From Trichodelitschia bisporula (taxonomy: Eukaryota), in assembly GCA_010356995.1 (NCBI GenBank), contig ML996689.1, positions 1,196,691 to 1,260,690 on the forward strand: DNA of 64,000 nucleotides. The letters run 5' to 3'. A program made the position numbers and the translations under genes. This document shows, one piece after another, positions 7,182 through 64,000 of this stretch. The notes below the pieces were generated by a model. It saw only the letters and a program-made list of their open reading frames with translations. It did no database searches and was not told where the DNA came from. Within the stretch, counting starts at the first letter, position 1. Each line of letters begins with the position of its first letter.

Positions 7182-9321
7182 TCACCACTCCGGCTGCGGC
7201 TTGCCGTAGGACCCCCTCTGTCCATCGCGCCCGCCATCACGCCCGCCGAATCCGCCACCAGACCGGCCACCATATCCTCCTCCAGACCTACCACCGAATC
7301 CGCCCCCAGACCGGCTCTCGCCGCCAAACCTGCTGCCTCCGGACCTGTCACCGAACTTGTCGCCACCGAACCCGCCGCCGCCAGACCGACCGCCAAACCC
7401 ACCGCCGCCAGACCGACCGCCGAACCCACCGCCGCCAGACCGACCGCCGAACCCGCCGCCACTGGGTCGACCGCCGAACCCACCGCTGCCGAAACGGTCA
7501 TTGGAGTCGACCTTGCGCCTAGGGGGCTCGCCAATGACCACGCCATCGCAGCGATGAACGCCGAGCTTCATGGCGCGACCGTGCGAAAGAGCAGGCGGCG
7601 TCTCCATGCCCCAGCCGTACCGCGAGAGCCGGTTGAGCGAGTCGATAAGGCGCTGCTTGTGGGGGAACCAGTTGAACACGCCCAGGAGCGAAGAGTAAGC
7701 GTCGCTCAGGGAAACAGGGTCAACGCGCTTGATCGCGCCGCCCACGCTCTGGAGCAGCGAAGCCACCTTGGCGGGAAGCTGCGCCGGGCGAGACATGTCC
7801 AGTGTAGCCGAATGCAGCGACTCGTCTTTGGAAATCGGCAGGCCGCCGAGGCGTTGGCGAGCCTCGTTCATCTCGATGGGGCTGCAGAACAGCCAGGCTT
7901 CACCCTCCTTGCCCGCGCGACCGGTACGGCCGATACGGTGGATGTAGTTTTCGCGGGAAGTGGCAAGACCCATCTGAACCACATGAGTAACATTGGGGAA
8001 GTCCATACCGCGAGCGGCAACATCCGAAGCGAAAAGTATGGCGCTCTCCGCGCCCTTGAAGTTGTCGGAAGAGCGCTGGCGTTGGCCCTGGGTAAGCTTA
8101 GAATGGATCTCGTAGAGCTTCGTCCGGGGAAGAGGGTTCTCAGGTAGCCTCGTGAAAAGCTCCTGAGCCAGAGAGACTTCGGCAGTCGAGTTGAAGAAGA
8201 CGATGGTCTTGAACGGGCGGCTTTCACCACTCTCAAACTTCTCGGTTTCGCGGAGAGCCAGTTCCAACAGCGCGGGGACCTGGTTCTCCAAGCCAACCAT
8301 CGGGACAATCTTCTGAGGAACACGCTCGTGGGTGGGGACCTCGTCGTGCTTCACGCACTGAACAAATTTGTAGTCGGGCTTCATGAGCTCGCGCACAAGC
8401 GTACGAATCTCTGGCATGATGGTGGCCGAGAACATCATGGTCTGGCGCGGCACCTGCTCCGGGTCAGGGCAAAGGCGGTTGATCTCAAGAATCTCGGGTA
8501 GGAAGCCGGCGTCAAGCAGGCGGTCGGCCTCATCGAGGACCAGAGTGGTCAGGTCCGGGACGGCCACGCCGCTATGCGGGTCGGAGATGATGTCCTTGAG
8601 CCGGCCAGGGGTGCCAACGAGGATGTGGCAACCCGCACGTTGCAGCTCCCGCAGCATCTGTCTCTTCTGAGTGCCACCGACGGCGCACTGCACGACCAGG
8701 CCGGTGTTCGAGCAAAGTCTCCGCGCTTCCTCCGCAATCTGCTCCGCCAATTCACGAGTGGGGGAGATGATCAGCGCCCGAATGTCCGAGGGAGAGGCGT
8801 TAAACCGGCCCCGCCGAGCATTGAGAGAGGGGTCATTCTTGAGGATACGTTCGATGGTAGGGAGTAGGAAGGCAATCGTCTTGCCAGTACCAGTTTTAGC
8901 CTGCGCAATCCTAGTACTGTTAGCTGTATGCCATTGACGAAAGGTAAACTAACATATCGTCACCCTGCAGCGCCTCGTTGATGGTCAACTTCTGCACTTC
9001 AGTCATCGTCTCTAACCCCATTTTGGTGATAGTCTGGATGATGTTTTGGTTCACCAGCTCACGTTCACCAAGTTCGGCGAAGGTAGACGCCAGACCATCG
9101 TCGACTTCTACCGATAGATTGGGATTGTGTGCGGAAAGTGTGCGGGTGGTGTGCAACGAAGCCAGACCCGTCCACTGTCTCCGAGCAACATGGACAGGTT
9201 GTGCAGTGATTGAGGCATTGGAAGTGATGAGAGAAACTCTGCCTGTGGCGACCTTAGTTGAGCATGCTGTGCTTAACGTCCGAGGGACAGATGCAGAGCA
9301 TCTCCGTAGGGCGGCGAGCAT
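7182..9321 (-). CDS. MSS116: Mitochondrial DEAD-box RNA helicase, Mss116/CYT-19-like, with Gly/Arg-rich tail
   Basis: Presequence-like MLAALRRCS N-terminus, AKTGTGKT, PTRELA, DEAD, SAT, ARGMD and HRIGRTGRAG motifs; one intron near 8912-8952; C-terminal GGFGGRS repeats. Confidence 0.9.
7362..7492 (-). repeat. 27-nt coding tandem repeat (GGGGFGGRS units) in the helicase tail
   Basis: Repeated ccgccgccagaccgaccgccgaaccc-like units. Confidence 0.85.
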
Positions 9322-21968: not shown

Positions 21969-24900
21969 CTAATCACTATCCTCATCCTCCTCGAAATCAT
22001 CACTCAACTCCTCCCCACTCTCATCATCACTAACAACATACTTCTTGCTCACCGCCGCCGCCCTCCTTCCCGGCCTCGCCGCCGGCTCCGGTGCAGCCTT
22101 AGCCACAGCCTTAGCCGCACCAGGCTTAGCCGCAGGCTTCTTCGCCACCGTCTTGGCCTTCGGCTGCACAGCCTCCTCCACCTCACTATCGTCGAGGATA
22201 TCATTCGCCAAATCCCCCTCACTGTCCTCCTCGTCCGAGAAAATAGCAGTCTTCTTCTTCGCATATGCCTTCGCCGCCGGACTCAACGCTAACTTCTTCG
22301 GCGCGGGCGCAGGCTTCGGAACCGGCTTCTTCGCCATCGGTGCCGCCTTAGCTGCAGGCTTCTTAGCCACCACCTTAGGCTGTGGCATCGGCTCACTCAG
22401 CAACTCCTCATCCTCATCCACCTCCGAAATGAAAGTATCATTGCCCTTCCTCCCAGGCCTCCTCGGTGAGTCCGCAGGAATCAGTTTGGAATAATCCGTC
22501 TCATCGACGTCACTATCACTCTCCACCACGCCCTTCTTCTTCGTCAGCCCCGCCAGGCCAGCCGAACTCCCCGGGCGCCCGGTCACCGTCGTCGTAGCAG
22601 AGAAAAGCGGGCGCGGCGCCGTGGCAGCCGGTGCGCCGGACCCAATCCCCTTGACCATCATGCTCACGTCGCCGAGGTCGTCGCCGCCGTCTGAGTCGTC
22701 GGACGAGATGGCGTAGCGCACGGGCTTCTTTGCGACGGTACGCGAGGTGCGGGCTGGGAGCTTGGTCTCAGCGGGTTTGGTTTCCTGGGCCACGGCAGCA
22801 AAGACGTCTGTGTCGTCGATGTCGGATGAGGGGAGCAGGACGGGCTTCTTAGGCGCGGCCTTGGGCTTGACAGCGGGTTTGGCGGCCGCGGCTGGGGCCC
22901 TTTTCTTGACGGCCAGGATGGGCGGGGAGTCGGGGAGCGAGATGATCGAGTCGTCTTTGATCTCATCGACGTCCATAGGGCTGGCAGCTGGTAGCGCAGG
23001 TGCGGGCTCGGGCTCGGGATCCGGCTTCGGATCCGGCTTCTTGAAGAAATTGGCCAAGGTATTGGGGCCCTTGCTTTGGGCACGCGCCACCACGCCCTTA
23101 ACCGCAGGCTTCTTCTTCGCAACGACGAAATCGTCATCACTGCCGCTGTCATCACCCTTCTTCTTGCGACCCTTGCCAGTGGCCTTTATGCCAAGCTTGG
23201 CAGAGTGACGACGCGCCACGCCAGCAGACTTCTTAGCACGCTTGCGCTCCTCATCCAGGGAGTTAGACCACTCCTCGAGGAAATCATCGAGATCGCGGTT
23301 CCACAGATCCTTAGGCGAGAGCTTGATCAGCTCGTCGATTTCCATTTCCTTGTCGCCGATCTGCTTCAGGATCTTGTCGATGCGCTCTTGCGTCAGCGAC
23401 CAGATCGGCATGCCCAGCAGGTAGTCGTAGCCGTTAGCGGCGGTTTCGGTCTCCTCGCTGTCTTCCTCGTCGTCCATGGCTTGTGCGAGCTCGCCTGCCC
23501 GCGCGGCCTCGGAGACTTTGGCGAAGGCGATGAAGTTGAGGCGCTTGAGCTCCTCCATAAGGGCGGCCTTCTTCTTGCGCGAGATGACCAGGTCGCCGTC
23601 GATAATCATCTTGATGAAGCGCGCCTGGTTACTCATCCTGTCCAGATCGCGCTGCAGCTCAGCGAGCACATGCTGCTTGCGCCTCTCGTAGTACTTGAGG
23701 CGGACGTGGTAGAACTCCTCCATCATGTCGAGGGGCGTGTCGTACTTATGGATGCGGCCCTCGGCGTCGAAGGCGACGAGGTTGGACGTAGCCATGGTCT
23801 TGCTCAGCTTGAACGTGTCCTCGAGGCCATTCGCCATGACCGTGTCCATGTTCTTCTCGTCAAGCTTGATGACGAAGTGCACCTTGGTCGGAGTATTGTA
23901 GTCCACGTAGTCCTTGATGAAGGACGGTACCTTCTCGCCCTTGATGATGTCCTCAAGCCGATCCTTGAAGTCTTGCGTCCACATCCGCACTGGAAGCTCC
24001 GTGACCTCAACCTCAGTAGGGCTAATCTGGCGCGCGACTCCAGTGAACTTCCAGCGATCGCCTCCCAGGTCCTCAACCGTACCAGTAAACCCACGGAACC
24101 AGGGCTTCATAGGAAGCATGTCATCCTTGCAAGTACCAGCCATGCGGCGCTTGATATTGTCGACGACATCTTCGGGCTTGTAATTGGGAATCGACGTGCT
24201 CCACCCCGTTCCAATACCGTCGGCACCGTTGATCAAAATGAGCGGGACAACCGGCACAAAGTTATGCGGTTCGATGGGCTTCCCGTCATCCTGGTGGTAC
24301 GTCAAGAGCGCCTGGTCAGCAGGGTGGAACAGACGCTTCGCAAAGGGCGATAGCCGCGTGTAAATGTAACGCGGGGAAGCCGCATCGGCACCACCCATGC
24401 GCCGACTGCCGAAATTGCCGCTGGGCTCGAGGCAGATGACGTTGTTCGACCCGACAAAGTCTTGCGCCAAACCGACAATGGTCTGCTGCAGGGACGTTTC
24501 ACCGTAGGCGTAGGCGGTGGTTCCGGACACAGTACCAGCGAGTTCCACGACCTTGAGATCCTTTTTCAAGTTCAGCTTGAGGGCCGTGTGGATGACCTTC
24601 CGCTGCGAAGGCTTGAGCCCGTCGATGACAGAGGGAATGGAACGTAGATTGTCCGCCATGCTGAAGAGGATCAGTTCCTTGTTCACGAAGTCGCTGTAAC
24701 TGATGAAGTGGGCTCTCATGTCCAGGAACGTGCCGGGTACGAAGTCGCGCAGCCAGTTCTTGCGCGCATCAGCCTTCTTCTTCGAGAACGCAAGGTCAAT
24801 CAGCTCGGCTTCCTCCGTCTTCATCGGTTCAAACTCCTTGAGATGCCGGTCCAGATCGCCGAAGTACACCTCAGCCTCCTCCGTCTTGCTGGTTCCCAAC

Positions 24901-27188
24901 CCCTTGTAGTACTTGTGCTCCCAACCTTTCTGATGACCGGGCTGTTCGCGCCAGGCATCATACTCGGGCATGGTGAAGAAGGACGTCAACTGACGCGGGT
25001 GTTTGGCATCGCCCTTCCAGACCTTGACAATCGGCGTAATAAACACCGTCAAGAAATCCGGGATCTTCAGCAAGCTGGGGTACTGAGCCTCCAAGAAGTT
25101 GATCAGCAAGCCCTTGATGTGGCTGCCGTCGTGATCCTGATCCGTCATAATCATCAGGCGGCCGTACCGCAGACTCTTCGTGTCCGTGTAGTCCTTCTTG
25201 TGCTGCAGGCCCATGAATTTCTTGATGTTCTGGATTTCCTGGTTGTTCGAAATGGACGTGATGCTCGCGTCGCGCACGTTGAGCAGCTTGCCGCGAAGCG
25301 GAAACACGCCGATGAGATCGGGGCTCACAACCGCACGGCCTGCCAGCGCAAGACCGCTGGCCGAGTCACCTTCCGTCAGGATAAGCGTGCACCGATGTCC
25401 GTCGCGTGTGCCAGCCTTGTTGGCGTCCGTCAGCTTCGAGTTGTTCATGCGGGCGCGGCGACTGCCATCAGACTTGGCGAGCAACTGATCGGCTTTCTTC
25501 TCCGCGAAGTGCATGATGTTGGTAATGACCTCGGACTTGCAGATCTTTTCCAGAAACGAATCGGTGAGCGGGCACTTGGAGCCAAACTGGCTGGCCTTGG
25601 TAGTGAGCTGCTCCTTGGTCTGTGATGTGAAGGCGGGATTGACGATGAGACAGTTGACGAACAGGAACATGTGGTTCTGAATCTGTCCAGGCTTCAATGC
25701 GACGCCCTTCTTGTTCTTCTTCTTCATGTACTCCTGGATCCGCGTCACAATCTGGTCCGCCACCGCCTTGACGTGTGTGCCACCCGACGTCGTGGCAATG
25801 GAGTTGACGAAGGAGACTTGGCGGAAAGATCCGTCTGAAACCGCAAACCCGACCTCCCAACGCTCGTTCGGCTTGTCGATGATGATGAGTTTCGAGGGGT
25901 CAGTGGGCGCATCCTCAGTTGCGCCCGCCTCCAGTGCAATGGCCTTGGTGTACATCTGCATGTACTTCTTGAAGTTGTTGATTTTGATCATCTCGCCGTT
26001 GAGCTTGACTTTGACGCTATCGATGGTGCCTGCCAAATCGTAGATACGGCGCTTGACGAGGGCCTCAAAGTCGTCGTCCATGCCTTCCATACCAAAGCGC
26101 GCGTAGTCTGGCAAGAATGTGACTTTGGTGTAGTCGTCGCCCTTGTGATCCGTAATCTTGGCCTTGCCCTTGACGCTCATATTCTTGGTCCACGTCTGCT
26201 TGTATTTCTTCTTCTGCTTCGAGTCCGCCGTTTCCACGGTGAACTCCATGCTGAAGATGTTACAAAGCTTCGCACCGTACCCGTTACGGCCACCCGTGAC
26301 CTTGGCCTGGGCGTCATCGTAGTTGGAGGATGTCAGAAGGTGACCGAAGATCATTTCGGGGATGTAGATTTGTTGTTTCTAGTCCGTCAGTCATTGTCCA
26401 CATCATGAAAGGATAAACCTACCGCGTGAATCTCAATCGGAATACCCTTCCCGTTGTTCCACACGCTAATCTCGCCCGTCTCACGATTGACCGTGACCCT
26501 GATCTCGTTCATGTTCTTGTCATTCTGGCGATTGTCCGCAGCATTGACAAGCACCTCGTCGAAGATCTTGTACAAGCCAGGCACGTACTTGACATCGCGG
26601 AACTCCATCAGATTCGTGTCCGAGTTGAACACCCACATCTGCGCGTCGGTCCGCTCAATTGAGCCAATGTACGTATCCGGGCGCAGGGTGATATGCTCGA
26701 TATGCGAAATCATCTGATACTTCTCGCTGGAGCCCTTTGCACCGGCAGGTGGGGTCCCATCCATCGGCGCCTCATTATCGATCTCGCCAAACGGCGTCTT
26801 GCCTCCAATCTTGGTAGGGTTCTTGCGCGCCTTCTTCGCCGACGGCGGCGTGTTCGCAAGCAACGAGTCGTCGTGGAGGGAATCGTGATCGCGCTCGCCC
26901 GCGGAGTTTTCATCATCTGACTCGGGGAGTGCGCGTTTCTTTCCCGCTGCTTTGGGCGCAGCTTTCGCCTTCGGTGCGGCTTTGGGTTTGGGAGCTGCTT
27001 TGGGCTTCGCAGGGGCTTTGGGCTTGGGCGCGGCTTTGGGTTTCGCAGCGGCTTTCCTCGGGGCAGCCTTGGGTTTCTACCTCGCGTCAGAGGGGGGGGC
27101 AGATGAAGAGCAGTGGGGTACTAACAGCCTTGACCGGCTCAAAATCCGAGCTGGCGCCCACGTCAAACATGGACTCGTCGGAAGACAT
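21969..27188 (-). CDS. TOP2: DNA topoisomerase II
   Basis: EVLVNAADN, GGRNGYGAK, LTEGDSA, PLRGK, MTDQDHDGSHIKGL, YYKGLGTS and catalytic SPRYI; start MSSDESMFD at 27188; introns near 26380-26422 and 27078-27124. Confidence 0.98.
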
Positions 27189-39414: not shown

Positions 39415-39857
39415 TGTTGCCTTGAAAGTAGTGAAAGAGGGAGTCTCGGTATCTGGCAGGTATCCGGTTTTTGTTTTACGTATTTGTACTAGCCGTCCAG
39501 GTGCAGAGGAGCAAATAGGAAAGACGGGCTGGTGGATGGGGCGAAGTGAGGTTGAAACGAGGGGATGTACAAGGTGATGATGTGGCCAGAGTATTATTTT
39601 ATCACGGACGATATGACAGGAAATTGTTGATTTAACTACCGATGCAATGTTGCGATGCTTCACTGCCTGGATGATGCGGCGCATGCTCGCCAAGATGTGA
39701 GGTTGGAATAAAGCTGTGTGGGCCCCTGTCTCGTGTCACGTGGGAGCGCGGCGTATCGCGCGTTGGCCAGCATAGGGCTAATTTTGCAGGCGCGCCAATA
39801 TTCAACACCAGACAATACCACTTGGGGCAACATCAAGACAATCACAAACGCGCAAAA

Positions 39858-42800
39858 ATGGACTCGGATCCGATCGAGGACTCGTCCTCGCCTGTTATAA
39901 AGATGCGCAACCACTTAGCGCGATTCAGTTACTGCGCGTCGACGATATCGACCTCCTTGGCGCAAGAGCGCGCGTGTTTGCTGCCATTGACACGCAACAC
40001 GCTCCCATTGTCTTCGGAAAAACTCCTGGCAGCAGCCAAGCCATCGCGAAGAAGCCTGTGTGCACAGGCCACCGCGAGCTTGCATAAAGGTCGAGGAGTT
40101 TCCTTCAACCAACTTTCTTCCTCGTCCGTTACGTACTCTTCACCACATTCTCAGTTCCGAAAGTCAGCTCGGCAAACAACTGGAAAGTTACCTTTCAACC
40201 TGAGAACTCCTCTTTCTTCACCATCAACACCTTCCTCCTCGCCGCCACCTTCGAACCCGCCATCGACATCCGAGATGGCTCCTAGTAAGCGCGAGGTCGA
40301 CGACTTCGTGGTCTCAGACGATGGCGCCGAGCTTTTGCATGGGGGGGTTGCGGCCACTTTCAAGGCCTCCAGCAAGCAAATGCTGCCCGAGATCGAACGC
40401 CAGGAGCGTCTGTTTGCGGAGGGCGAGACGAACGGCGAGAAGGACGTCAAGAAGTCGAAGAAGGAAACGGTCAAAGAAGCCCAGGTCGAGCTGAAGGACC
40501 TCCTCGATGACGGGGTAAGAAGAAATATCACGCGCATGCGTCTCGTATTTCCCAACTTCCCAGAGTCCGATCTTCACCAAACACTTTTGCTAAATCATGG
40601 GAACGTTCAACAGGCAATGGCCGCTCTGGTCTCCGATGATGAAGAAGAAAGCGCCGAAGCACCGAAGAAGCGCCGCCGCCTTGTGCGTGGTCGCCGTCCT
40701 GCTCGCGCTCCGACTCCGTCTGATGACGATGATGTCGTGCTTCTCCCCGCCGCCCGCAAGCGCAAGAGCGCTCCTGCCAGTGTCCGACCCCCCACTAAGC
40801 GTCAACATCTCGAAGACCCCGCCACGGTCATCATGTCCGGCGTCAAGCGCGCAGCCGACCAGGCGGCTAAGCCTGTTCCTCCCACCAAGCGTCAAAATCT
40901 GGAAGATGTGTCCACGATCAAGTGCAGCACCAAGCGTGCTGCCTCTCGCGCGTCGACTGCTTCCCCCAAGCCGAAGAAGGCCCGCATCTCGGATTCAACT
41001 AACGACAACATTGTCGTTCCCGATTCGCCCGCCACGGTCGTTACCCTTTCGGACACCGACTCCGACTCTGATCATGACGAGGATCAAGAGGCTCTTACTG
41101 CCGCCGCCATCAACAAGCAGATTCTCGAGCTGGCCAACACCGCTTCCCTCGGAAAGCTGGTCGAGTTTACGAATTGCTCCCGTCGCAACGCGGAGCTCAT
41201 CATCGCTGAGCGCCCGCATCACGACGTCGACGATATCGACAATCTCAAGCACGGTGGCAAAGGTCGTTCGATCGGTCCTAGCGTTACCAACGCTGCCCGC
41301 AACGCTTTCACAGCTCTCAACGCTGTTGACGAGATTGTCGCCGAGTGCGACGTAGCCAAAGAGGAGATCAATGCTGTTGTCAAGACCTGGGGCGGTGAAG
41401 AAGGAATCTCGACCGAGGGTCTTTGTCTCAAAACATTCAGCAAGGCCGCAGAAGGCAATATTCAGATCCTGGGCAAGCCCCAGTCCATGGCTGAGAGCCT
41501 CATCATGAAGGACTACCAGCTTGTTGGCCTCAACTGGCTTAATCTTCTCTACGAGAAGAAAATGGGCGCGATCCTCGCTGATGACATGGGCTTGGGCAAG
41601 ACTGTCCAAGTCATATCCTTCCTTTCTCATCTCGCCGACAACGGCAATCCCGGACCTCATGTGGTGATCGCTCCGAACTCGGTCCTGGCCAACTGGGGCA
41701 AAGAGCTGGAAAAGTTCGCTCCCAACCTCACGTACATCACGTACCACGCGAAGGAAGCCGAGCGCAGGGAGATGGCATGGGAAATCCTGAAAGATCGGAC
41801 GAAGTACAATGTCATTCTGACGACGTACACCACGGCGTCGAACGATTACAAGGTTTTCCTTCGTAAGCTTGTTCCAGAGACGATGACCTTCGACGAAGGT
41901 CATATTATGAAGAATGCCGGCACCGCCTTGAGCATGCATCTCCTTTCGGTCGAAGCCAAGTTCCGCCTTGTCCTGACGGGCACCCCTCTTCAAAACAACC
42001 TTCAGGAACTGATGAATATGGTCAGGTTCATCATGCCGGCTCAGAGCTGCTTCCATCAGTACCAAGAGCAGCTCTCGACCTTTTTCAAACCGAAGAACCC
42101 GAAGCCTGATGCGGTGGACCTCCATACTGGTGTCGTGTACGATATGTGCGTCGAGCGTGCGCGTGCTATTGTCAAGCCGTTCATTCTGCGTCGTCAGAAG
42201 GAAAGTGTCCTTCAGGACCTCCCGCCGAAGAACCACCACTTCGTGCCTTGCAAGATGATGCCATTGCAGGAAGAGGTCTACAAGTACTTCGAGCAGAAGC
42301 ACCGGGACTGCATTGCTTCTAAGAAGCTCGTCCATGAGGGTCAACAGCCACCGAGGGACAAGGAAAACACCTTGATGAACCGTCGCCTAGCCGCAATCCA
42401 TCCTCTTCTCTTCGACCACCACTACCAGAAGGTCAGCCACAAAATGGAGAAGATAATGCAGCAGGTCTTGAAGCGCGAGTTAGGGAAGTGGAACAAGCAT
42501 GTCGAGAAGCAAGCCACGATTGTCCATGAAAACAATGACTTCCAAAACCACCAGTTGTGCATGGAAACTCCTGAGCTAGAGGAGTACATTTTGAAGAATC
42601 AAGAGTGGCTTGAATCAGGGAAGCTTCATGAGATGCTTCGCCTCCTGGAGGAGTTTGAGAAGGAAGGCGCGAAATCCTTGATCTTCTCCCAGTTTACGAA
42701 CGTTCTAGATATCATTGAAGCCGCGCTCAATGATCACGACATCAAATTCGTGCGCCTGGATGGCGCGACGCACACGGATGACCGCGAGAACCTGATTGAG

Positions 42801-43229
42801 GAGTTCCACAATGATCCGGAGATCAAGGTGTTCCTCATCACGACAAAAACTGGCGGCGCTGGCATCAACCTCGCTTGCGCGAACAAAGTCATCATCTTTG
42901 ATACGTCTTTCAACCCCCAGGACGACGTTCAGGCTGAGAACCGCGCCCATCGTGTTGGGCAGATGAAGCCTGTGGACGTTTATCGTCTTGTCACCGAGAA
43001 CAGCATCGAAGAAGAAATCTTGGAGATGCACCAGTCGAAGCTGCTGCTCGATCAGCGCATTTCGGACCTGGACCCGGAGAAGACGGCCCAGAAGCTGGGA
43101 GCCCAACTTGAGAAGAAGATTGAGGCGGAGTTTCTGAAGTCCGATGAGTTTAAGAAACAGGAGGAAGAGTTTCAGCACGAGGCCCGCTACCGGAAGGGCT
43201 ACTATATGGAAAAAGGCGGCGACGAGTGA
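39858..43229 (+). CDS. SNF2-family chromatin remodeller, Fun30/SMARCAD1-like (start 39858 or 40274)
   Basis: CUE-like FPNFP..LLLNHGNVQQAMAAL, LADDMGLGKT, DEGH, LTGTPLQNNL, LIFSQF, GGAGINL and QAENRAHRVGQ. Confidence 0.88.
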   Translation: MDSDPIEDSSSPVIKMRNHLARFSYCASTISTSLAQERACLLPLTRNTLPLSSEKLLAAAKPSRRSLCAQATASLHKGRGVSFNQLSSSSVTYSSPHSQFRKSARQTTGKLPFNLRTPLSSPSTPSSSPPPSNPPSTSEMAPSKREVDDFVVSDDGAELLHGGVAATFKASSKQMLPEIERQERLFAEGETNGEKDVKKSKKETVKEAQVELKDLLDDGVRRNITRMRLVFPNFPESDLHQTLLLNHGNVQQAMAALVSDDEEESAEAPKKRRRLVRGRRPARAPTPSDDDDVVLLPAARKRKSAPASVRPPTKRQHLEDPATVIMSGVKRAADQAAKPVPPTKRQNLEDVSTIKCSTKRAASRASTASPKPKKARISDSTNDNIVVPDSPATVVTLSDTDSDSDHDEDQEALTAAAINKQILELANTASLGKLVEFTNCSRRNAELIIAERPHHDVDDIDNLKHGGKGRSIGPSVTNAARNAFTALNAVDEIVAECDVAKEEINAVVKTWGGEEGISTEGLCLKTFSKAAEGNIQILGKPQSMAESLIMKDYQLVGLNWLNLLYEKKMGAILADDMGLGKTVQVISFLSHLADNGNPGPHVVIAPNSVLANWGKELEKFAPNLTYITYHAKEAERREMAWEILKDRTKYNVILTTYTTASNDYKVFLRKLVPETMTFDEGHIMKNAGTALSMHLLSVEAKFRLVLTGTPLQNNLQELMNMVRFIMPAQSCFHQYQEQLSTFFKPKNPKPDAVDLHTGVVYDMCVERARAIVKPFILRRQKESVLQDLPPKNHHFVPCKMMPLQEEVYKYFEQKHRDCIASKKLVHEGQQPPRDKENTLMNRRLAAIHPLLFDHHYQKVSHKMEKIMQQVLKRELGKWNKHVEKQATIVHENNDFQNHQLCMETPELEEYILKNQEWLESGKLHEMLRLLEEFEKEGAKSLIFSQFTNVLDIIEAALNDHDIKFVRLDGATHTDDRENLIEEFHNDPEIKVFLITTKTGGAGINLACANKVIIFDTSFNPQDDVQAENRAHRVGQMKPVDVYRLVTENSIEEEILEMHQSKLLLDQRISDLDPEKTAQKLGAQLEKKIEAEFLKSDEFKKQEEEFQHEARYRKGYYMEKGGDE

Positions 43230-50716: not shown

Positions 50717-53700
50717 TTAGGCGACCAACTGCTTCACGAGAAACGACTTGCTCCTCCCAAAGTGATCGAATGGCACTCCCGAATCCATCCGCCGGTAGTT
50801 CTCCGTAATAAGCACCTCGACCGCGCCCCGTGTGCCCACAACCGGCCCGCTGGGCACACCATTCGGACGTACCTGCCAGATGACGAAGTTCATCTCGGGA
50901 ATCTTGCGCAGCGGCACGAGCCGGGTCGTCGCGCGGGGCACCAGCGTAAACCGTATGACGTCCGACCCCGCCTGCTTCTCCATGACGTGCACGTTGAAGC
51001 GCGGGTTCGTCAGCATTTTGCCTCCAGGACCGGTGTACGCAGCGCACAGGTCCTGTGCGCGCACCCCGAGGGGAATATCAACGTCTACGGTGTACAGCTG
51101 GAGGTTGTGCAGCGTGTCTTGCTGAATTGGATCCTTGGGCCCGGGGGGCGTGAGAGTTACAACAATGTCGAGTGGGATGTTGCGTGGGTCGTGCGCGTCC
51201 TTGTACACGGGAATCGTTGCCGCGGCTCCGAAACTGGGCGGTGGGTGGTGCAAGGCGTAAACCTTGGGAATGAACTGCGGGCCGCAGTCGCGAGCAAGCA
51301 CGAGGCTCTTGTTGTTCTTCGGAATCTGGGTGCGCTCTGATAGCGGTATGTCGGGATGAGCATTCGCGTTGATGTATCCCGGACGGGTGGGACGCAGTGG
51401 CGGGTAGACCGGTGGTGAAAGGTGGGTTGTATCCGGAGTGGGAACGTCGGTAGATGGCGTCGGAGGAGCTGGCTTCGAATGGTTCTCTGGATGAACTTTC
51501 TTCCAGGTTGTTGGGTCCTTGTCTGCGTCATCTTGGATGCGGATGTGGCGCGGCTTCTTGAGTGTGTCTGGGGGAGCGTCGACAGCAGCTGTGTCAGTTT
51601 TAGGCACTAAAATCTTCATTTGGGATATGTAAGAGGTGAGCATCGTGCCGGCGACGGCCGAGGTGGACACATCGTCCTTGAAGTACGGGTTATTTGGCGG
51701 AGAGACCATGAAGTTTTGGAGGACTTCATTGCACGCTTCCGCAAAGGCTGGGAAGATGATGGTTCGAGATCCCCAATCGAAGATACTTCCTGGCAGATTG
51801 CTGTCCTTTACGTGTTGTTCCTCTTTCGTATGGACTGCCTTCTTCTCATCGCTTGCATTTGCTTCCAGCGGTGGCACGTCTGGGGCTTGGCCCTTTGTCC
51901 AGTTGATAGTGGCCAGCGGCTGATGGAGATCAAACTTCCTTTCTGGATGGCTAAGGTCCTGAGTTGGGGGCTTCTTCGTTGTGAAAAGATGCTTGAATGT
52001 GATTTCAACAGCCTGCTCGGTCACGGTGCCCGAACCACCAAGTCGAAAGCATTGCTGATGCGGAGGCTGTGAAATGACAATCTGCAGATCATCATCCCAA
52101 TGCGGGGACGCGGGCATGCGGTCAAAAAGACACAACAACACATCTTTGTCGATGGTTTCCAAGCGCAGCACGGGTTCTCGTGATGGTCGCAGCTGCTCGT
52201 TGTCCGTGCCAGGGTCATCCGTTCTCGGCCACGGTGCATGGACCTCAAGGTTCGGAAAGGCCTTGACAACCGAGCTTCTCATGAGAAACCCAAAGCACGG
52301 CACTTGAGGAAAGTAGTTGAGGTCGGGGTGGTCCGTCCTGTAGCTGGCGCCAAGGTACTTGTTAAGTGCTCCCTTGAAGGCCTGCCTCACGACGTCATCC
52401 GACCGGTCGAGGTGATTGCCGATGCTTAGTGCACCATCAATGAAAGCATCCATCCAATTGGTGTCGACGTAGAAGAAGCGAATGGTCTCCCTGGGCAAGA
52501 ACGAGGGGTCTGGGATGAGGTAATGCGCCGGTATGTTCTTCAAGAAGAGATTGTTCATGATCCATGACTGAACGATCCCCCAGTCCGCGGAATTCGGCAC
52601 GTTGATCTCGCTGAATGGGATAAAGACTTCATCGTCATCTGAATTCGAATTGTCTGGAAGGGGCGGAATGGGGTCCTGTCCAGACGTCATCAAGACAGCT
52701 GTAGCGGCCACATGTGTACGAAAGATATCCCCGTGGACCTCGCCAACGCCCACCGGATTGGACTCAGCATCATTACCAGAAACAAATGTGGGGTGAGGCG
52801 TGCCCGTCACAGCGAATCTGTTGGAAGGGTCGACCACATTCTCGCCAGGGGCCGCTGACGCCAAAGCATCCACGGTGTCGATTGCGTCTGCCAGCCCTGC
52901 AAGCATACGCGCTTTGGTATTCCCAACATTCTTAGCTGCAAGAGCCTTCATCACTCCCCTTCGAGCAGTTGTCTGGATGGCCGTCCGAAGCCGTACGAGT
53001 GCGGCGGAAAAGGCTTGATCTGCAATTCCCAACGTCCGGCCAAGCTGCCATGCGGCAGAATACGTGAGATCCTGGATCCCAAGCGAACTATCGAGCACCT
53101 GGTAGTCCGTCGAGAAGTTGGACTGAAAGGGCCACCAACTTGCGGTGATGGGGGGAACGTAGCGTGGCGTCAGTGGTCCCCGATAAAAGGATATCGTTTC
53201 CTCACCTGTCTGCAAGAGGTATCGTTGGAGCATAAATCCATCGCTCATGCGTTCTTTTAGGCGCGATTTGAACGCTGTGGGCATTTGCGCCGTTCCAGTC
53301 CGGTCAATGGACGCAATGACGGCATCAGGAGCACGCAGCCAACACTCTCCAGTTTCCGAGATACTGTTTCCGATATGGCGCATGGTATCAGTGAAGTTCA
53401 CGGAGTCCGGGGGCAGACAAAGATATGTCCAGCTGTAGAGTGACACGAGCGCGATATGCGTCTTTGGGTCTTTCAACGGCAGCCGCATGTGGTCCTCGAT
53501 GCCTTCGAGAGTCACGAGGTGCACGATGAAAGGAGTGGCCTCGGTCAAATCAAGAGGCCCAGTCCTGTGACCATGGATGACTGAGTATAGCCCTTCATCT
53601 TCCACTCCGGCTCCAGCCATATTCTTCGTGTTGATATTCCGCACGTGGGCCAGGTACTTGTATCGGTGCAGGTCGGGGATACGGGCCTGGTTTGGATCAG

Positions 53701-54906
53701 TCACTAGAGGTTTGGAGCCGTCGGGAGTGTAACTGCAAAACAGATCCTCAAAGTTGTCCCGAGGAATAAACACAACGTCAACTTGCTGATCTTTGGGAAT
53801 CGGCTCGTCGCTTCGATCCTTGATCGGGATGGCCACCTGAACGTCATGCCCCTTTTCGTCGACATTTCCAGCACGCCCAAGATCCAAATATTCGTCCATG
53901 GTCATTTTCACCGCGAAAGTGCTCTTGTCTTGTTGGCGATCGAAGGGGGATGGTTGCGTACCGCTCGTACCTGGAGCCGGTGTACTCTTCGGGGGAACCT
54001 TAGGGGGGCCCTCGGGAAAGAAGCCACCCTCACTTCTTGGTTTGAGCTGATTTGGTTTAAGCTTGATTTCGTCCTCAGAAAAGGTGAGAAGAGCCAGCCA
54101 TGGCACCATATTTCGTCCATGCATATTGCCATCCGCGGGCTTTTCTGGGGAGTCCGGCGTGTCCGGTTTGGCTGCAACGGAGCTCGGTTCCGTTGTAGAA
54201 GAAGCTTCATCCGCTTTCTTTTTAGCATCGGCGGCTGCTTTTGCGACTGCCTCTTTTGCGGCTTTCAACTCCTCATCGTGGTCGATGTGGGATGCCTCTT
54301 GCTCCCAAGGTAGATGAGGGTCTTCGAAGACCATATGGGGTAGGACATTGTTGTGATCTCCCAAACCCTGCGGAGGGTATGTGTGGTGAACAATCCCCGG
54401 AGGCAAAGAGAAGCGAGGCGCATTGACATTGAACTTTTGCAGACTCTTCAGCACGATTTCCTTGGACTTGTCGAGTGGTACTGGTGGGGGTTTCCCGTCA
54501 GTTGGCTTTGTCGGATCTTTCTTGTCGTCTGATTTTGGGTCCGGCGTTGGGTCCGGTTTGGGATCGGGTTCAGGCTCTGGAGGCTCCGGATGCTTGAACT
54601 TGGGATGGGTTACAGTTTGGACAACTTCGATGTCGTAAACGCCTCCTTGAAGACCCGGAGCTGCCTGCCCTTAGCTTGGGCGACCCACAAATCGTACACG
54701 TATTTACCATAGTAAGAGTACATCTGCATCATCCCGGGTGTAAGAGATGGTGGTTTGTTCGGGTCGTCATCTTCAGTGAACTCATTGTTTCCGGCTACAG
54801 CCCTACTGAGAGCAAGCCCTCGAGCCTCGCTCAATGATGATGCCTGGCTCTTCAAGTGCTTGAGCACCCGCAGTCGAGCATTGTCGGGCTTGATAATGGT
54901 GTCCAT
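50717..54906 (-). CDS. Large uncharacterised protein A (~1380 aa, 2 exons)
   Basis: ATG at 54906, exon to 54708, 47-nt intron 54707-54661 (GTAAAT..GCTAAG..CAG) giving MQMYSYYAPGLQGGVYDIEVVQ in frame with ORF 50717..54454. Motif-like blocks PRFSLPP, LPHMVFEDPHLPWE, YSAAWQLGRTLGIAD, YLIPDPSFLPRETIRFFYVDTNW. Confidence 0.85.
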
Positions 54907-55607: not shown

Positions 55608-58600
55608 ATGGCGACCGATGCTGATCCCGTCCTTCTTGTGCCCATCAAGCTCGATGCTTGTGTGATCAATCCTTCTGTTTGGTATGAGAGCGAATGATGT
55701 ATCTAAACCTATCCTGACAGCTACCAGCGGAGATTTCCCTAACTCTACGCTTGCCCCGCTATCCCAACCGAACTTCACATTCCTCCGGACTGACTCCTCT
55801 CTGATTTCACCGGATGTGCTGCCGTATCATGACCTCCACAATGCCTCTCCGGCATCAGTCAATCCAAGGCTCACAAATTTGGCCACTTCTCTTCCAATAC
55901 CGGAACGGCAAGGCGTGTATCTCCACTGGATGCTCCCCCGAACCTATCGATCAGGCACTGCTTCCGACGCCAACGATTCAACTCACGATCTAAGAGCCCC
56001 CGTCTTCAAGAACTCGCCGGACCGATGGCTGGTAATTCGGCGACTACACCCCGGCTTCAAGCCTGAGGATGCAGTTCGGCAGGGGAAAGTGAAAGAAATT
56101 ACAGCTTGGGTCATTGAGAGCAACCGGCTCCGGAATATCCAGGAGTTCGATCGGAATGTCGACATTGAGCTCGAATGCTCGCCCTTCATTCAAGCTGACG
56201 CGTCGGCACCGTCTCTGGATGGACAAGCCGAAATCTTCATTGGCAACAAGGTTGAACTGGAGCAGTGGACTGAGCAGCTCGGTACTCAACCCAATCAGTT
56301 TGTCCAGCTCAACGTGATTGGCGCCGCAAACCCTCTGTTTGCAGATTACGCGCCCCATAACTCTAACGTCTTCTCGATGTTCGACAACTTCGGTACAAAT
56401 CTTACCGATGCCACTGTGAGCTACTATGTCGTGGGGTGGCATGCCAATTCTCGGGACGATCCATTGTCGAACTTGGATGAGTCGGCTTTGCTCTCGAGCA
56501 TCTTGAGGGACTTGAAGATGGAATTGAAGCTGTCTAAAACTGATGACACCAAAGTTGACATCGATGCCCGCAAGCATTCTCGGGTCCTGTGCCATGGTGC
56601 GCTGTACACCGTCCGGTTCAACAATTCCGCTTTACCGACTGACGTAAAAGTCCCGGCGAACGATGCAGGGTTGAAGTTCGGAGACAAGTCGTCGCATCCG
56701 GTCACCGTAGGGACGACCGCGTTGGATGCGGTCTTGTCGTACGTCAAAGCACATCATGAGGAGACGAAGACACAATCTACACCGTCCGATAAGGAGCTAG
56801 ATAAGACCGAGGCCGATATTCTCCTCCTCGACACACTTCTCCTCAAGCAGGAGGATGAGATTGATGCCCAGCAAGAAGCCCTAGACATGCTCTCCGCCAA
56901 CAATTTCCAGCCAGCCAAGGACAGCGGAACCCACTGGCACTTCTCTGCCGCCGATGCGGCCCCCATGGACAGCAAGTTGCCCAACCGTACGGCGAAAAAC
57001 TTCAGCCCGAACGATGATCAGAAGCAAGTCCTTGCAGATCTTAATGCCGCCCAAGAGGTGTGTGATGTTGCGACCCGGGAGCTTCAATCGGAACGCTGGG
57101 CTCTGTTCGCTCTATGGTGGCAGTACGTTGCTGACCCAGCACTGCAAGATATTAAGAATCGGGATACTCTGGTCTCCAAACTCAGAGGCCAAGTTGACCT
57201 CGTAGAGCGTCTACTCAAAATCCAAGGCAGGTTCAAGAAGCTGGTTGACACGTGTCTCGTTCCTTTTGGTTCCGACGAAGACACGCGAATTGTTCAGCCA
57301 GGAAGCCAAACTCGCTTCTACACCCAAAAAGACCCAACCATTCTTGTTCCCGGAGTGACGAACCCTTGGCCTGTAGACTGGATATCGACGTTGCAAGCGC
57401 GGCTGAGTCCGCAAGTGAAGCCCAACAAGCTTCCCGATAACCTTCCGAATGGGTGGTCTGGCTTGCAAGACATCAGCTCAAAGCAGGTCCCGAAGCGGAT
57501 GCCCGCAGCCCTCCAGCGTGGAATCCAGACGCTCTGCTCGGAGTTTTTCAACTTGCACCCGAAAGACACAACCGGTGATACCTGGTCGCCAATTTCAGAG
57601 GGAACACTGCCATTGTACCATGATTTCGTGGAAGACAACATCGTCAAGGAGGGCCTTAAAGGAGGCACAGGGCGAGATCAATGGAACAGTGCGCAACCCT
57701 GGTTCCCGCTCTTCTTGGAGTGGGAGGCGCGATATTATCATATCCCTTGGGAGAAGTGGGGATTCATGGAAATCGACGCAAATCCGGCACCCGGCAAAGT
57801 GAAGCGCTGGCGGTGGGGAATCAACGAAGGGGATACAATCCAGGGTTTGGCAGACGATACTGTGACCAAGGATGTCGATGAGAGAGTAATCTCTGGGCGT
57901 GTGCTTATCCTGCCGCAGCCGGGATTCAGCTTGCGAGTCAACATTCAGCAGATTTTCAGCTCGACTTCGAGGGACGATCTTCCCTCTGACCTGAAGTTCG
58001 ACCCGACAAGAGTAAGCGGAAGCGGAAATCAAAAGTCCGCAGCAGACCAGGACAAGCAGATTCGCGACCAGTTTTTGTCACGGGTCGAACGCCTCAACTA
58101 TCTTTCTGCTCCGCTGGCGGGGTTCCAGGACCACCTCGTCACCAAGCTCAATGGTACTCATCTTAAGCCGTCGTATCGGGTACCCAAAAAGCCTTTGGTT
58201 CCGTTCAAGGCTGCCGTTGAGGCAGGAAAAATGGGTACCAGCCTGACCGAAGCGGAAATCGGTCACTGGATCTCCTTGATGGATATTGAGACGGACAAGG
58301 TCCCATTTACCAACCACGTCCCGTTTCCAGATCGCCAAATTGCCCCTCTCAAGCCCGTTTGCCACGGCCAATTCAAGTTCACACGCCTAGACGTGTTTGA
58401 CAAGTTTGGACAGGCGATCTCCGCGATTAACCCTGCCCCGACCAACGCTGTCCCTCCACTGTATCCCGTCCTTAGCGAATATTTCCACCCGCAGCATCTG
58501 AGCACCGATCCAGCAAGCGAGGGATACCTTCAGGCAAAGTCGGTTGGCAAAGATCCGTTTGGCAGTTGTCAATTTGGCCAATACCCTCCCATTATTAACC

Positions 58601-60045
58601 AAGATACGCGCATCAATACGGCTTTCATGCATTGGGATGAAAAGGCTGGAGTATCAGGTCTTTGGCGCCCTTGCACTGAGTGGGAGAATCCGATTTGGGG
58701 ATACTTGGTGGTCAACTATGCGGAGTACGCCATGCAGGTGTTTCTTCCTGACGGACAATTCTATCGCGAAATCCGAATGGGCGGGCCCACCGGCACAACG
58801 GAAAAACCAGCATGGGCACCCTTCGAACAGCCCAAGGAAGGACTCGAGAAAGTGACCGGGAGCCCAACCGAGGCGCAGGCGCTCGTGCAGCTCGATAACC
58901 TCCTTTCTCGGTTCAAAGACCTGTCATATCTCCAAAACTTCTTCCGCATGATCAACAAGTCCCTCGACTCCATCGCCCACACTCCCAATTCCTACGCCGA
59001 TTACCTCTCCAGCATCGTCGGCCGACCCCTCGCCATCGCCAACATGGGCTACTCAATTGAGCTTGCGCAGCCGCCGTTCAAAAACCAGTGCACCCTCCCG
59101 ACCGACGCCGATGTCTCAAAGCCTCTCGAGTCGTATGACTTCAAGCTGAAGCTAGGCGACCGGGACCGTGTTTACGACGGCTTGGTCGGGTATTTCGACA
59201 GTAGCGCTGACTTCGAGCATTTCGGCACGGAACTCAACCTCGACACCGTGTACACATACTATCCCACGGACGAGGCCCCAACAGCGGAAATTCAGCCGGC
59301 AAACTACCTCCACGCCCAGCCATACCACTTCAGCACGGCGGATGCATCTCGTACCACTGCTGCCGCAGCCACGGATCCTAACATGACCGACGCGACAGCG
59401 CAAGCTGCCGCGGCTGCGTTCACGGAAGTCCACTGGCGGAAGATGAAACTTGCGGGCGTGATCTTCGATCCATTCTCCAAGCTGCACGTCTACAGTGGGA
59501 TCTTGCCTATCGCTACGCTTCAGCTGCCGCAGTGGTCCCTACAGGCGGCTATGCAGTCCATGACGGCATTTTTTAGCATGGGACCGCTGCTGATTACTAC
59601 GCCGGACCTGCAGCGGCAGTATAATCCGAAACGAAATCTGACTAAGGAGATTAATTTGCTGGCGCTGGAGGAGGTGGAGAAGGCCGATGAGGATGCGGAT
59701 AAGGATAAGGATGGCAAGAAGGATGAGAAGACGGATGAGAAGAAGGTGGATCCCGCGCAACCGGTACCGTTCAAGGGGATTCCTATCCCGGCCATTCAGT
59801 CAGCGGAGTGGAACTGGTTGCAGCCGTTTGCAAGGGATATCGTAGCACCGACTGATGGAGGTGCAGGTGATGCCGGTGCCGTTGCCGGGTCAGGGACAAC
59901 AGTGCCGAAGAAAGAGACACACTGGAATCCGTTCGTCATCACTCACCTCGACAACAAGCCGAAGTTTGAGAAGGGCCCGTACACGGCGATTGAGGGATAT
60001 CTGCAGTTGAAGCGGCCGATCATGCAGCCTTTAGCGAAGCAGTGA
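55608..60045 (+). CDS. Large uncharacterised protein B (~1463 aa, 2 exons)
   Basis: ATG at 55608, 46-nt intron 55682-55727 (GTATGA..CTGAC..CAG) giving VLLVPIKLDACVINPSVCGDF in frame with ORF 55684..60045. Blocks GVYLHWMLP, PDRWLVIR, QPWFPLFLEWE, ISGRVLILPQ, VFDKFGQ, GRPLAIAN, DGLVGYF, HVYSGILP, IEGYLQL. Confidence 0.88.
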
Positions 60046-60153: not shown

Positions 60154-60948
60154 TCAAGCACTCTTCTCCTCCTCCACCGCCGTCTCAACCCCCACTCTCG
60201 GCCCCTCCCAAACACTCTCCACCATGCACGCCGCAACCCCCGCCAACACCGCTCCAGCCGCCGCCCACCCCACAGCTTTGCCCATCAACCACGGCCCAGC
60301 AAAGTCCTGGCTCACAATATCCGCATTATTTGGATTCCCCGTCGTATACCAGTCACCAATCGGGTACTGGATGTTCACCAGCGTATTCGTCGTGATAATT
60401 GTGCCGATTAGGAGTGCGAGAGCGGACAACCCCGCGCAAAGACGCGTAAGCAGCGCGAGCCAGGCCGCGGGAGTGTGATTTGCGCGGCGCAGCTCGGTGC
60501 GGCCGTGATGTGGTGTGCGCGTGAAGAGCGGCGTGAAAGATCCTGTCGCGGAGCGCAGGACACGCGGGAGCGTCAGTGCAGTCAGGACGAGGACGATGAG
60601 CAGTGCGAGCGCGAGAAGAGCGTTCCCCGCGTAGAGGAGGCGGCCGCCGAGCGCGAGCTGCCGGCAGAAGTGTACGTTGTCGGCGCGGGAGTTGCTGTTC
60701 TCGTCGCACAGGCCTCCGGCGTGGAGGGTGTGCTGGCACTTGTCGATTGCATTGGGGAGAGCCGGGAGCTGGCAGGACACGAAGGGGCCGCGGTGAACCT
60801 TGCCGAGGGAGCCATGGTCGGATTGGGAGTATTCAGTGCGGTAGGTCCAGTCTTTGTGGGAGGTAGAGTAGGCGGAGAGGATGAAGGATGGGATGAGGAG
60901 GAGGGTTGGGAAGAGGGTTAGAGTGAGGGCGGAGATTTTGGCAGTCAT
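60154..60948 (-). CDS. Four-TM membrane protein, claudin/Sur7-PalI-like topology
   Basis: Four hydrophobic segments; first loop W..RGPFVSC..C..C..C resembles the claudin-superfamily W-GLW-C-C signature. Confidence 0.65.
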   Translation of the reverse strand: MTAKISALTLTLFPTLLLIPSFILSAYSTSHKDWTYRTEYSQSDHGSLGKVHRGPFVSCQLPALPNAIDKCQHTLHAGGLCDENSNSRADNVHFCRQLALGGRLLYAGNALLALALLIVLVLTALTLPRVLRSATGSFTPLFTRTPHHGRTELRRANHTPAAWLALLTRLCAGLSALALLIGTIITTNTLVNIQYPIGDWYTTGNPNNADIVSQDFAGPWLMGKAVGWAAAGAVLAGVAACMVESVWEGPRVGVETAVEEEKSA

Positions 60949-61867: not shown

Positions 61868-61902
61868 ATGTCTGCCATGACCGGTGTCGTTAGCTGGCCA
61901 TC

Positions 61903-61936
<34 letters not shown>

Positions 61937-64000
61937 TCCTCCTCAAGTTCGAACATCCCTCCGCCGACGCCCTCATCACTCCCTCCCGTCAACTCGGGGT
62001 CGGCGAAAGCGGCCACCGGACCGACACAATGGACTACGCCGAAGAACGATTTCCAGTTGGCACAGACGAGACTCGCCGTGGACGTCTATCATATCAACAT
62101 CCGGACTGGAGACAGTGCAATTTACTACCTGGTGGAGTACCCAGATGAGGCTGTTTTTGCCAATTTTCCCAACGCTAAACCCTACATCCACCGAGCGGTA
62201 CTGATCGATGGTGGCAAGGACACTGGGTCAAGCTACATCCGCACCTTTTTGTACAACCGAGTTCTTCGCATGTATGATTTCGATGACACGCACGGAGGAA
62301 TCAGGACTAAGGCCGCCTTCCCTCCGTTCGATGCTATTCTCATCACGCATTGGGACTCTGATCACTATGCCGGAGTGCTGGCCCTTATTGTCGACGACTT
62401 GATCCTCCGGAACCAAACAGGACTCGTTAACCTGAACACCTATCTTTCGCCGTACCTCAAGTACGCCCCAGCAACCTCATCCGCGAACCTGCGCGATGAA
62501 CGCGCGCTGACGTACCTTTACGTGCCCTACTGGGCCAGGACTACGATGCTTGACTCCACAAACACTCCCCGGCAGCCGAAATTCCCTTGGACGCAGTGCA
62601 AACCGAATGGCATGGTCTGGACCAACCCAGATAAGGTTCAGACCTTAGCCAACGGACAAGAGGCCTTTCTTGACTGGAACTCGCGCCTTGAGCCCCTGGG
62701 CAATCCAAAAAATCCCGATGAGTGGGCCACGAAGCTGTGCCGAATGAGATCCGGGAATGGATTTCTTCTCGGCACAAACTTGTTCACCAACCACCCGATC
62801 GGATATACGTCGGCCATGACCATGATGACGAACCCAGGATTGCTTGCACAGGCCCATCAGCTGTGGATGCTAAATAGCGCTTCCGCACCTCCCAAATTTG
62901 AAATGCCGGTGCTCTGTATCGTTGCTGCCAATTTCGAATGCTGTGGTCAGGGCGCGAGCCTGAACCTCGAGGCTGCTAAGCTCGCTTTGCAGAACTTATA
63001 TGCCCCGGACTTCACCGGGAAGGTGCGGACGGTTGACGCCGCTTTCGACGTTGAGCAAAACCCGGAGAGGCTGAGTGAATGCGAGCCCGAGGTTCTAGAA
63101 TACATGCAAGCTGTACTCAAAGCGCGAGACGACGCCGCCAAAAAAAGAGTGGTTCCTCCCTTGCCGGATGACGGTTCCAACGGTGGCTCCAACGGTGGCT
63201 CCGACGATATGACGCTTGATGATGGGTCTGGAGACTCGGGAGGGACCAAACTCAAGGACTCGAAACAGTCTCTTGCGGCCCACTTGTCCGGTGGCAGCGC
63301 AGAACTCCAAAATCTGAAGGCCGTTGTCGCTGAATCTCCGTCGGGTTCGGGGGGGACTACCCCACAGAGCAGCACTAATCCTCGGAGCGGCACCATCTCC
63401 CTCAGTGACTCCAGTACAAGCCCGCCCCAGTTTAGTAAAAAATCTCTGAACCCCAGAAGTGTCAAAATCGTCGATATTGCGCCGTATCTTTCTGAGAAGT
63501 CGGAGCTTGCCAACGCGATCAGCGTCCAGTCTATGGTGATATGGACCGACGGACAAATCTCACAATATACGGCCGGGGATGCAGACTGGGATAGCGAGAT
63601 GAAGGTTGTTGCTTGGGTTTATGCCGGCAAGAATAAGTACCAAACAGCTCGTTCCATCAAACTTTCCCATCATGGTTCCCGAAGCTCAACTCCGGTGGAG
63701 ATGATCCGGCATTTTCGCCCGAGAAACATTGTCATTAGTTGTGCAACGACCCAATTTGGACATCCGAGTATGTGTTTCCTTTCTCCCGAACCTGAGTCTA
63801 ATCAGTTTCAGGACCTGAAGTTCTTCTTTGGCTTAACCTGTGGCATCAGACTACCAAGCTATATCGCTACGTGCCAGACAATGGGAACAGACGCAAAGAA
63901 ACAGGCATTCTGTCAACAACGGCCTATCCATACTACCTGGCCTACCAGAACGTCGGTGGTGTTAGTCCTTGGGCAGAAGTTGTGAGAGCCAGCGAAGGAT
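61868..64000 (+). CDS. Protein with N-terminal ComEC/Rec2-type metallo-beta-lactamase-fold domain (gene D); continues beyond window
   Basis: HINIRTGDSA, VLIDGG, THWDSDH, TAGDA, IKLSHHGS, IVISC..FGHP. A 44-nt intron 63768-63811 gives GHPRPEVLLWL..TAYPYYL.., open to base 64000. Confidence 0.85.
61903..61936 (+). repeat. (AGC)n microsatellite encoding poly-Ser
   Basis: About 11 AGC units. Confidence 0.9.

Follow-up and report, generated by a model that had tools for sequence, protein, structure and literature searches.

What a metallo-beta-lactamase (MBL) domain of bacterial type is doing in a spliced fungal gene is the question raised by the last 2 kb of a 64,000-nucleotide stretch of the Trichodelitschia bisporula genome (assembly GCA_010356995.1, contig ML996689.1, positions 1,196,691 to 1,260,690, ie C3:1196691-1260690). 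This whole stretch is referred to here as the window; motif positions are given in window numbering, and positions beyond its end in C3 numbering. A preliminary description, made from the sequence alone, had read the domain as a ComEC/Rec2-type MBL, a module on a larger protein. It was found to head a spliced protein of 2,817 residues which also carries DUF6603 (PF20248), and the gene lies in a cluster with genes A, B and T, of which A and B have homologues beside DUF6603 in bacteria. The reading we favour, with a probability of about 0.4, is that these genes encode an enzyme-carrying, membrane-engaging conflict machine common to bacteria and fungi, in which the fungal head would be a di-metal phosphodiesterase and probably a DNase.

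The spliced gene and its MBL head

The six motifs of the preliminary description lie in a single frame from the ATG at 61868, in the order claimed: GDS at 62108, LIDGG at 62201, THWDSDH at 62345, GDA at 63575, KLSHHGS at 63659 and GHP at 63758. The Asn of motif III (NxxS, N549), additional to that set, is at 63512. When exon 1 was shuffled 20,000 times, [ST]HxDxDH and HHG never occurred together. Long insertions between the motifs had also been described, with a low-complexity one at about 63150-63450. This was recovered as an entropy minimum at residues 441-520 (about 63190-63430) and as a predicted local distance difference test score (pLDDT) below 50 over residues 435-531 of the structure model of the MBL domain, and it is lineage-specific, most of it being filled in fewer than 10% of 93 aligned relatives. 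At the N-terminus there is a run of 17 serines encoded by an AGC repeat (61901-61951), which is not found in most relatives.

The stop at 63985 that closes the open reading frame (ORF) had been attributed to an intron at 63768-63811, with the signals GTATGT...CTAAT...CAG. Contigs from two runs of one sample omit exactly this intron and four further ones, all GT..AG; the contigs are taken to be RNA from their splicing, none being recorded as such. One of them bridges all five splice sites, from exon 1 to beyond the stop codon, and the gene therefore appears to be expressed as one transcript. The five introns are of 42-45 nt, and joining the six exons gives 2,817 residues with one terminal stop. 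The spliced sequence regains the helix and strand found after GHP in ComEC (hhalign probability 98%). Because the contigs skip the intron and splicing restores this ComEC-like element, the stop at 63985 is regarded as an artefact of the intron. Many gene calls among the shorter family matches stop just past the HP motif and were likely halted by the same intron in those relatives. The introns of the cluster, where checked, are all very short (42-46 nt).

Exon 1 had 393 relatives in the 50% library, and DUF6603 is carried by all 30 of those with at least 1,900 residues. The 17 named relatives looked up are ascomycete proteins labelled as hypothetical, as DUF6603 or, in one case, as RNase Z-like. 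Across the 93 aligned sequences, which share 24-52% identity, D114, D165, H166, N549, D571, H601 and H602 are invariant, while H161, D163 and H632 are conserved in 97-98%. The structure model (pLDDT 74 overall, reaching about 90 or above over the motif segments) matched ComEC 9ic4 with Z 15.7 (root-mean-square deviation (rmsd) 3.2 Å, 209 residues aligned) and the phosphorylcholine esterase Pce, 1wra, with Z 15.1. Both halves of the modelled domain align to one ComEC domain, which implies that the predicted ligands would cluster round two metals. The best solved structure by sequence profile was also a ComEC domain (9vc6, E 9.5e-12). By profile and by modelled fold, the head is a member of the ComEC/Pce clan of MBL hydrolases. 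Foldseek gave no MBL match at E 0.001 or better, and the ESM Atlas returned only unnamed clusters.

The eukaryotic HxHxDH nucleases, ie RNase Z, CPSF73 and SNM1/Artemis, were rejected, as the preliminary description had proposed: the motif is HWDxDH, RNase Z models gave only about 12-13 bits against cut-offs of 252-293, and the fold scores of RNase Z, CPSF and RNase J were Z 11.1 or less. No characterised, vertically inherited eukaryotic MBL family was the best hit in these comparisons. The narrower assignment to ComEC/Rec2 held at the level of the clan and not beyond. The protein shares with the C-terminal MBL of ComEC/Rec2 (TIGR00361; 9ic4, 9vc6) the fold, HxDxDH, the motif III Asn, GD, HHG and GHP. 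However, its MBL is N-terminal, has the signature HWDxDH and two or three large insertions, is fused to DUF6603 and falls outside ComEC in trees. The DNA-uptake protein itself was rejected, with 21.4-21.7 bits against the TIGR00361 cut-off of 190, no Competence or OB Pfam domain in the scanned exons, and one hydrophobic window in 2,817 residues. A ComEC-like function in DNA uptake or salvage, with the beta-sheet of the protein as a channel and the MBL degrading incoming DNA, is accordingly very improbable. The ComEC domain is the closest solved relative of the head, and the DUF6603 core is curved as porin sheets are (Z about 15), but the rmsd of 12-13 Å marks a generic beta-meander only; the accessory domains and transmembrane helices of ComEC are lacking, and the head is swapped for non-nucleases in bacteria and absent in many fungi.

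Hidden Markov models of defence MBLs outscored ComEC_Rec2 (21.7 bits) on the MBL protein, at 42.7 bits for the LmuA-type and 26.7 for Avs1a, all far below cut-off. The LmuA-type, RTasMBL and Avs1a models matched 93, 91 and 90 of the 93 members, respectively. The head could then be a pro-nuclease of intracellular immunity that is gated as HamM, Avs1a and CanC are, its active site being closed by insertions until a protease cuts them and the cell dies; in the accessible parts of PMC12799240 and PMC12642450 this is the gating mechanism of the defence MBLs. These, with the LmuA-associated enzymes, are of the same clan and have long insertions between motifs II and III. Motif II and HHG are 188-461 residues apart in fungi (441 in this protein); six Avs1a-like proteins have 195-268 residues between them, and ComEC has 108-148. 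The second fungal insertion sits ahead of NxxS. We nevertheless consider gating quite unlikely. No conserved cut-site residue was made out, a hydrophobic-hydrophobic-acidic motif being present in only 34 of 91 members, and the insert ranges from almost nothing to about 170 residues. A scan of unsplit ORFs of at least 170 residues found no protease or sensor family in the window or in 64 flanking ORFs, save NACHT-type ORFs beside truncated DUF6603 copies. The Avs1a score of 26.7 bits compares with a family cut-off of 420, and fusion to a giant scaffold sets the fungal protein apart from the gated enzymes.

The ligands also bear on the reaction. According to the part of PMC8579336 available to us, a ligand set of this kind, in which motif II has Asp and motif III has Asn, binds Mn2+ and gives phosphodiesterase and DNase activity, while Pce has His at the motif II position where the ComEC set has Asp. 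From its conserved residues the fungal head would very probably be an active di-metal phosphodiesterase, and by analogy with that set DNA would be the somewhat favoured substrate. The tie in fold score between Pce and ComEC (15.1 vs 15.7) tells against this last step; DNA is therefore not the sole candidate. Pce/CbpE (1wra, 2bib) differs from the fungal protein in the motif II residue, in its choline-binding repeats and in its signal peptide.

The DUF6603 cassette in bacteria and fungi

DUF6603 lies in exon 5 (E 3e-149, C3:1264656-1266275); it is single copy in this genome and was found in none of 14 control genomes. When bacterial genomes were searched with the DUF6603 stretch as a single-protein pattern, nothing was returned. 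The stretch matched 19 plasmid records, in three of which the next two genes match A and B (E down to 6e-24 and 8e-30). A bacterial set of 83 loci was made up of these three plasmids and the best 80 of 408 alignment relatives. A is present in all 83 loci, B in 80 and, within the limited flanks, a fourth gene, D, in 27; D was not found in the T. bisporula genome with one query. An MBL of the ComEC clan adjoins DUF6603 upstream in nine of the 83 loci, and in one it is fused (L013, 2,340 residues). Six of eight relatives of a Streptomyces cassette MBL precede DUF6603. Very large inserted domains are seen in Streptomyces cassette MBLs (L046:5197-7740, L081:5358-7634, L133:7896-10091), with 465-533 residues from motif II to HHG.

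The other bacterial heads are varied. Upstream ORFs were scanned at 66 of the 80 loci and a Pfam match was obtained in 21, nearly all to hydrolases or toxin-like domains: lipase (5), trypsin (4), MBL (4), and one each of PLD, S8, C39, M91, EEP nuclease, glycosyltransferase, RIP and eCIS-core. On the DUF6603 tree the MBL-headed bacterial copies are scattered, with at least seven changes forced, and heads have therefore been exchanged. The toxin-like range of these heads points to a role in conflict. What bacteria and fungi have in common is DUF6603, A, B and an optional MBL head. Unlike the bacterial cassettes, the fungal cluster is spliced and non-operonic, contains an extra four-helix gene and has its own DUF6603 clade.

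The fungal genes are listed in Table 1. Among 79 metagenome loci 43 were of fungal type. Where these had 2.5 kb or more of upstream sequence, A or B was found in 14 of 15 (11 of 12 without near-duplicates, one with a weak B fragment only). Gene order and strands in one locus, L240, are those of the window cluster. Two unpublished genomes, G301 and G453, carry no weight in any of the conclusions drawn here. The preliminary description was right as to the bacterial-type clan of the domain; the domain is, however, not isolated but part of an old fungal family and a four-gene cluster. Gene T has relatives in five distinct fungal loci (that in L208 at 40% identity) and in none of the bacterial cassette loci compared, and is for that reason counted as the fourth, fungal part. 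We take it to resemble claudin/Sur7-type proteins; Pfam and PDB searches gave no match. Searches of Pfam, PHROG and PDB sequences gave no meaningful match for A, B or T, and NCBIfam gave none for A and B.

Table 1. Features of the cluster in window coordinates
Feature	Position	Strand	Description
Gene A	50717..54906	-	About 1,380 residues; predicted intron at about 54661-54707 (sequence prediction only); homologue of the gene immediately 3' of DUF6603 in bacterial operons
Gene B	55608..60045	+	1,463 residues; intron 55682-55727; homologous to the second gene past DUF6603 in bacterial operons
Gene T	60154..60948	-	264 residues; four hydrophobic helices; loop 1 has a conserved Cys; oriented divergently to the MBL gene
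Exon 1	61868..63767	+	Residues 1-633 of the 2,817-residue MBL-DUF6603 gene; contains a poly-Ser leader and the greater part of the MBL domain
MBL core	62081..63766	+	Predicted metal ligands D114, H161, D163, D165, H166, N549, D571, H601/H602, H632
Lineage-specific insertion ahead of motif III	62966..63460	+	First helical, then disordered and S/G/P/D-rich
Intron 1	63768..63811	+	44 nt, GT-AG, immediately 3' of GHP
Exon 2, start	63812..64000	+	Gene continues past the window end to C3:1267229; six exons in total

The cluster lies among genes that we take to be housekeeping genes, for a kinesin, a DEAD-box helicase, topoisomerase II, an SNF2-type ATPase and an SF3B1-like splicing factor (2169-4400, 7182-8948, 21969-27076, 39675-43229; L003:595-4239). 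The guanine plus cytosine content of the cluster is 0.54-0.55, against 0.55-0.58 in the other window genes; this resemblance gives no sign of recent transfer. Two other fungal loci yielded only the C-terminal half of DUF6603. In one (L243:6981-11556) it lies immediately behind a NACHT/NPHP3_N ORF, and in the other (L227:297-6069) it is followed by a SesA/PigL_N ORF, possibly an NLR-type link to DUF6603. In a third (L228:4255-5811) an ORF with an SsdA-type deaminase domain is immediately 3' of the DUF6603 gene.

Within the protein the MBL head is followed by a long, one-sided amphipathic beta-sheet and then by DUF6603. The exon 5 model (pLDDT 77, predicted template-modelling score 0.53) is a long beta-meander with helices interspersed; its first 430 residues consist of repeats of four to six strands plus a helix, and over 41 strands the two faces are hydrophobic to 0.78 and 0.34. 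Neither the MBL-DUF6603 protein nor the main ORFs of A and B have an N-terminal hydrophobic signal. Foldseek on the DUF6603 model returned generic beta-sheet matches only (template-modelling score about 0.15). The fold lists mainly cover residues 531-927 of the model, and the VPS13/TamB-type grooves are not among the matches listed, which excludes nothing.

A sheet of this kind might instead belong to a lipid-handling machine, in which a hydrophobic groove anchored by T feeds lipid to the head and the MBL cuts a head-group phosphodiester as Pce does. The strongly hydrophobic face, the strand-helix repeats, the membrane protein of the fungal cluster, the Pce fold match (Z 15.1) and the lipase or PLD heads at six of the 66 scanned bacterial loci would suit such a machine; the sheet would then resemble bridge-type lipid transfer proteins. 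Protease, EEP nuclease, RIP-like and glycosyltransferase-like heads suit lipid transfer poorly. As far as the available part of PMC8579336 goes, Asp also stands where Pce has His. On balance the lipid-handling reading, although the main rival, is unlikely.

History of the head and the cluster

Trees of the MBL were built from 51-105 chosen rows and 154-167 core columns. The fungal MBLs form one clade (support 99-100) on a long stem. In the first best tree they grouped with three standalone bacterial MBLs that lack DUF6603, A or B neighbours (98/85), and in a later one with two bacterial HYDxDH cassette MBLs (87/52). Of the sister groups tried, four were not rejected by the approximately unbiased (AU) test: p was 0.20 for the ComEC-like, 0.44 for the gated, 0.29 for the cassette MBLs without L013 and 0.054 for L013 alone. 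A clade of fungal and gated MBLs, as the pro-nuclease described above would suggest, is thus compatible with the data. A single group of the fungal and all cassette MBLs was rejected (AU 0.019). The HYDxDH type is seen at L254:6040-7689 and L272:1286-3001, where bacterial MBLs with a long insertion lie directly 5' of DUF6603 and are weakly nearest to the fungal ones. Standalone proteobacterial MBLs of the clan (L195:8270-9568, L196:9263-10810, L197:2261-3898, L198:7945-9555) have an N-terminal extension; two adjoin a HerA-like ATPase, and no protease partner was seen.

In the DUF6603 tree, a quick tree with a midpoint root, the 27 fungal rows group as a single clade, separate from the 47 bacterial ones (Shimodaira-Hasegawa-like approximate likelihood-ratio test 100), and no bacterial donor could be identified in it. 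Many classes of ascomycetes have relatives, for example in Fusarium, Trichoderma, Metarhizium, Cercospora and the nematode-trapping Orbiliomycetes, and some of the DUF6603 proteins bear the label 'srcap-like transcriptional activator'. That a chytrid has a B homologue and a basidiomycete a DUF6603 protein suggests an old origin.

Fungal DUF6603 without an MBL arises at least three times on this tree and is seen at the genomic level in L212, L230, L262 and L274. In two Eurotiales DUF6603 proteins of about 1,430 residues, P0317 and P0327, the MBL head is degenerate and the middle shortened. Such lineages would be expected if the MBL were a non-catalytic passenger that served structure or ligand binding, but conservation of the predicted ligands is 97-100% while overall identity is 24-52%, and this explanation is the least credible of those considered here.

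A proposed carrier for an enzyme in conflict

In the conflict machine that we prefer, the DUF6603 sheet would probably form a carrier with A and B, its hydrophobic face engaging a membrane or wrapping cargo, and in fungi T would tie this carrier to the membrane. The chances are about even that such a machine holds its enzyme in check and afterwards sets it free or delivers it in the course of a biological conflict, whether antagonism or defence. More doubtful is the further proposal of one ancient fungal acquisition, in which a membrane-anchored effector machine (DUF6603, A, B and the four-helix anchor) would restrain a DNase used, without a signal peptide, on competing or host fungi or on the fungus's own infected cell.

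Expression reported for other fungi provides leads. In the accessible part of PMC4004048, five adjacent Trichoderma harzianum genes (scaffold_33:96708-123863) have one time profile and are induced on Sclerotinia cell wall; among them are genes for a protein of 1,416 residues (log2 11.5), a 'srcap-like' protein of 1,682 residues (11.6) and a serine proteinase (10.2), the last of which would suit a gated pro-nuclease. Trichoderma B homologues are mostly of 1,416-1,421 residues and MBL-less DUF6603 proteins of 1,679-1,688, ie two of the five induced genes match the cassette by label and length alone, and are a lead only. FGSG_07822, the gene most reduced by the mycovirus FgV1 in the part of PMC4071046 available, adjoins the B homologue FGSG_07821 and is known here by neighbourhood only.

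Several observations weigh against the conflict machine. The T. harzianum genes would represent an MBL-less copy, and their induction was measured against glucose in the part of the study available, so that starvation could explain it. The DUF6603 model shows no specific likeness to any solved delivery machine. Of the fungal DUF6603 matches of 1,400-1,948 residues, a length band which excludes full fusions, 52 of 54 are without an MBL, and the two degenerate Eurotiales heads are to be set beside them. In bacteria 45 of the 66 upstream ORFs had no Pfam match, some of them probably being wrong-frame picks. The fungal head is conserved, whereas a toxin tip would be polymorphic. We know of no export route.

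The MBL domain taken alone adds only one new branch, a fungal one, to a known clan. The surrounding DUF6603-A-B-T system matches no described family in the sequence comparisons made here, and no description of DUF6603/PF20248 or of the fungal cassette was found in the open-licence PMC and bioRxiv literature. In the fused fungal form the machine comes with a catalytic site that can be tested, and a fungus open to genetic work offers a direct route to the function of the bacterial cassette.
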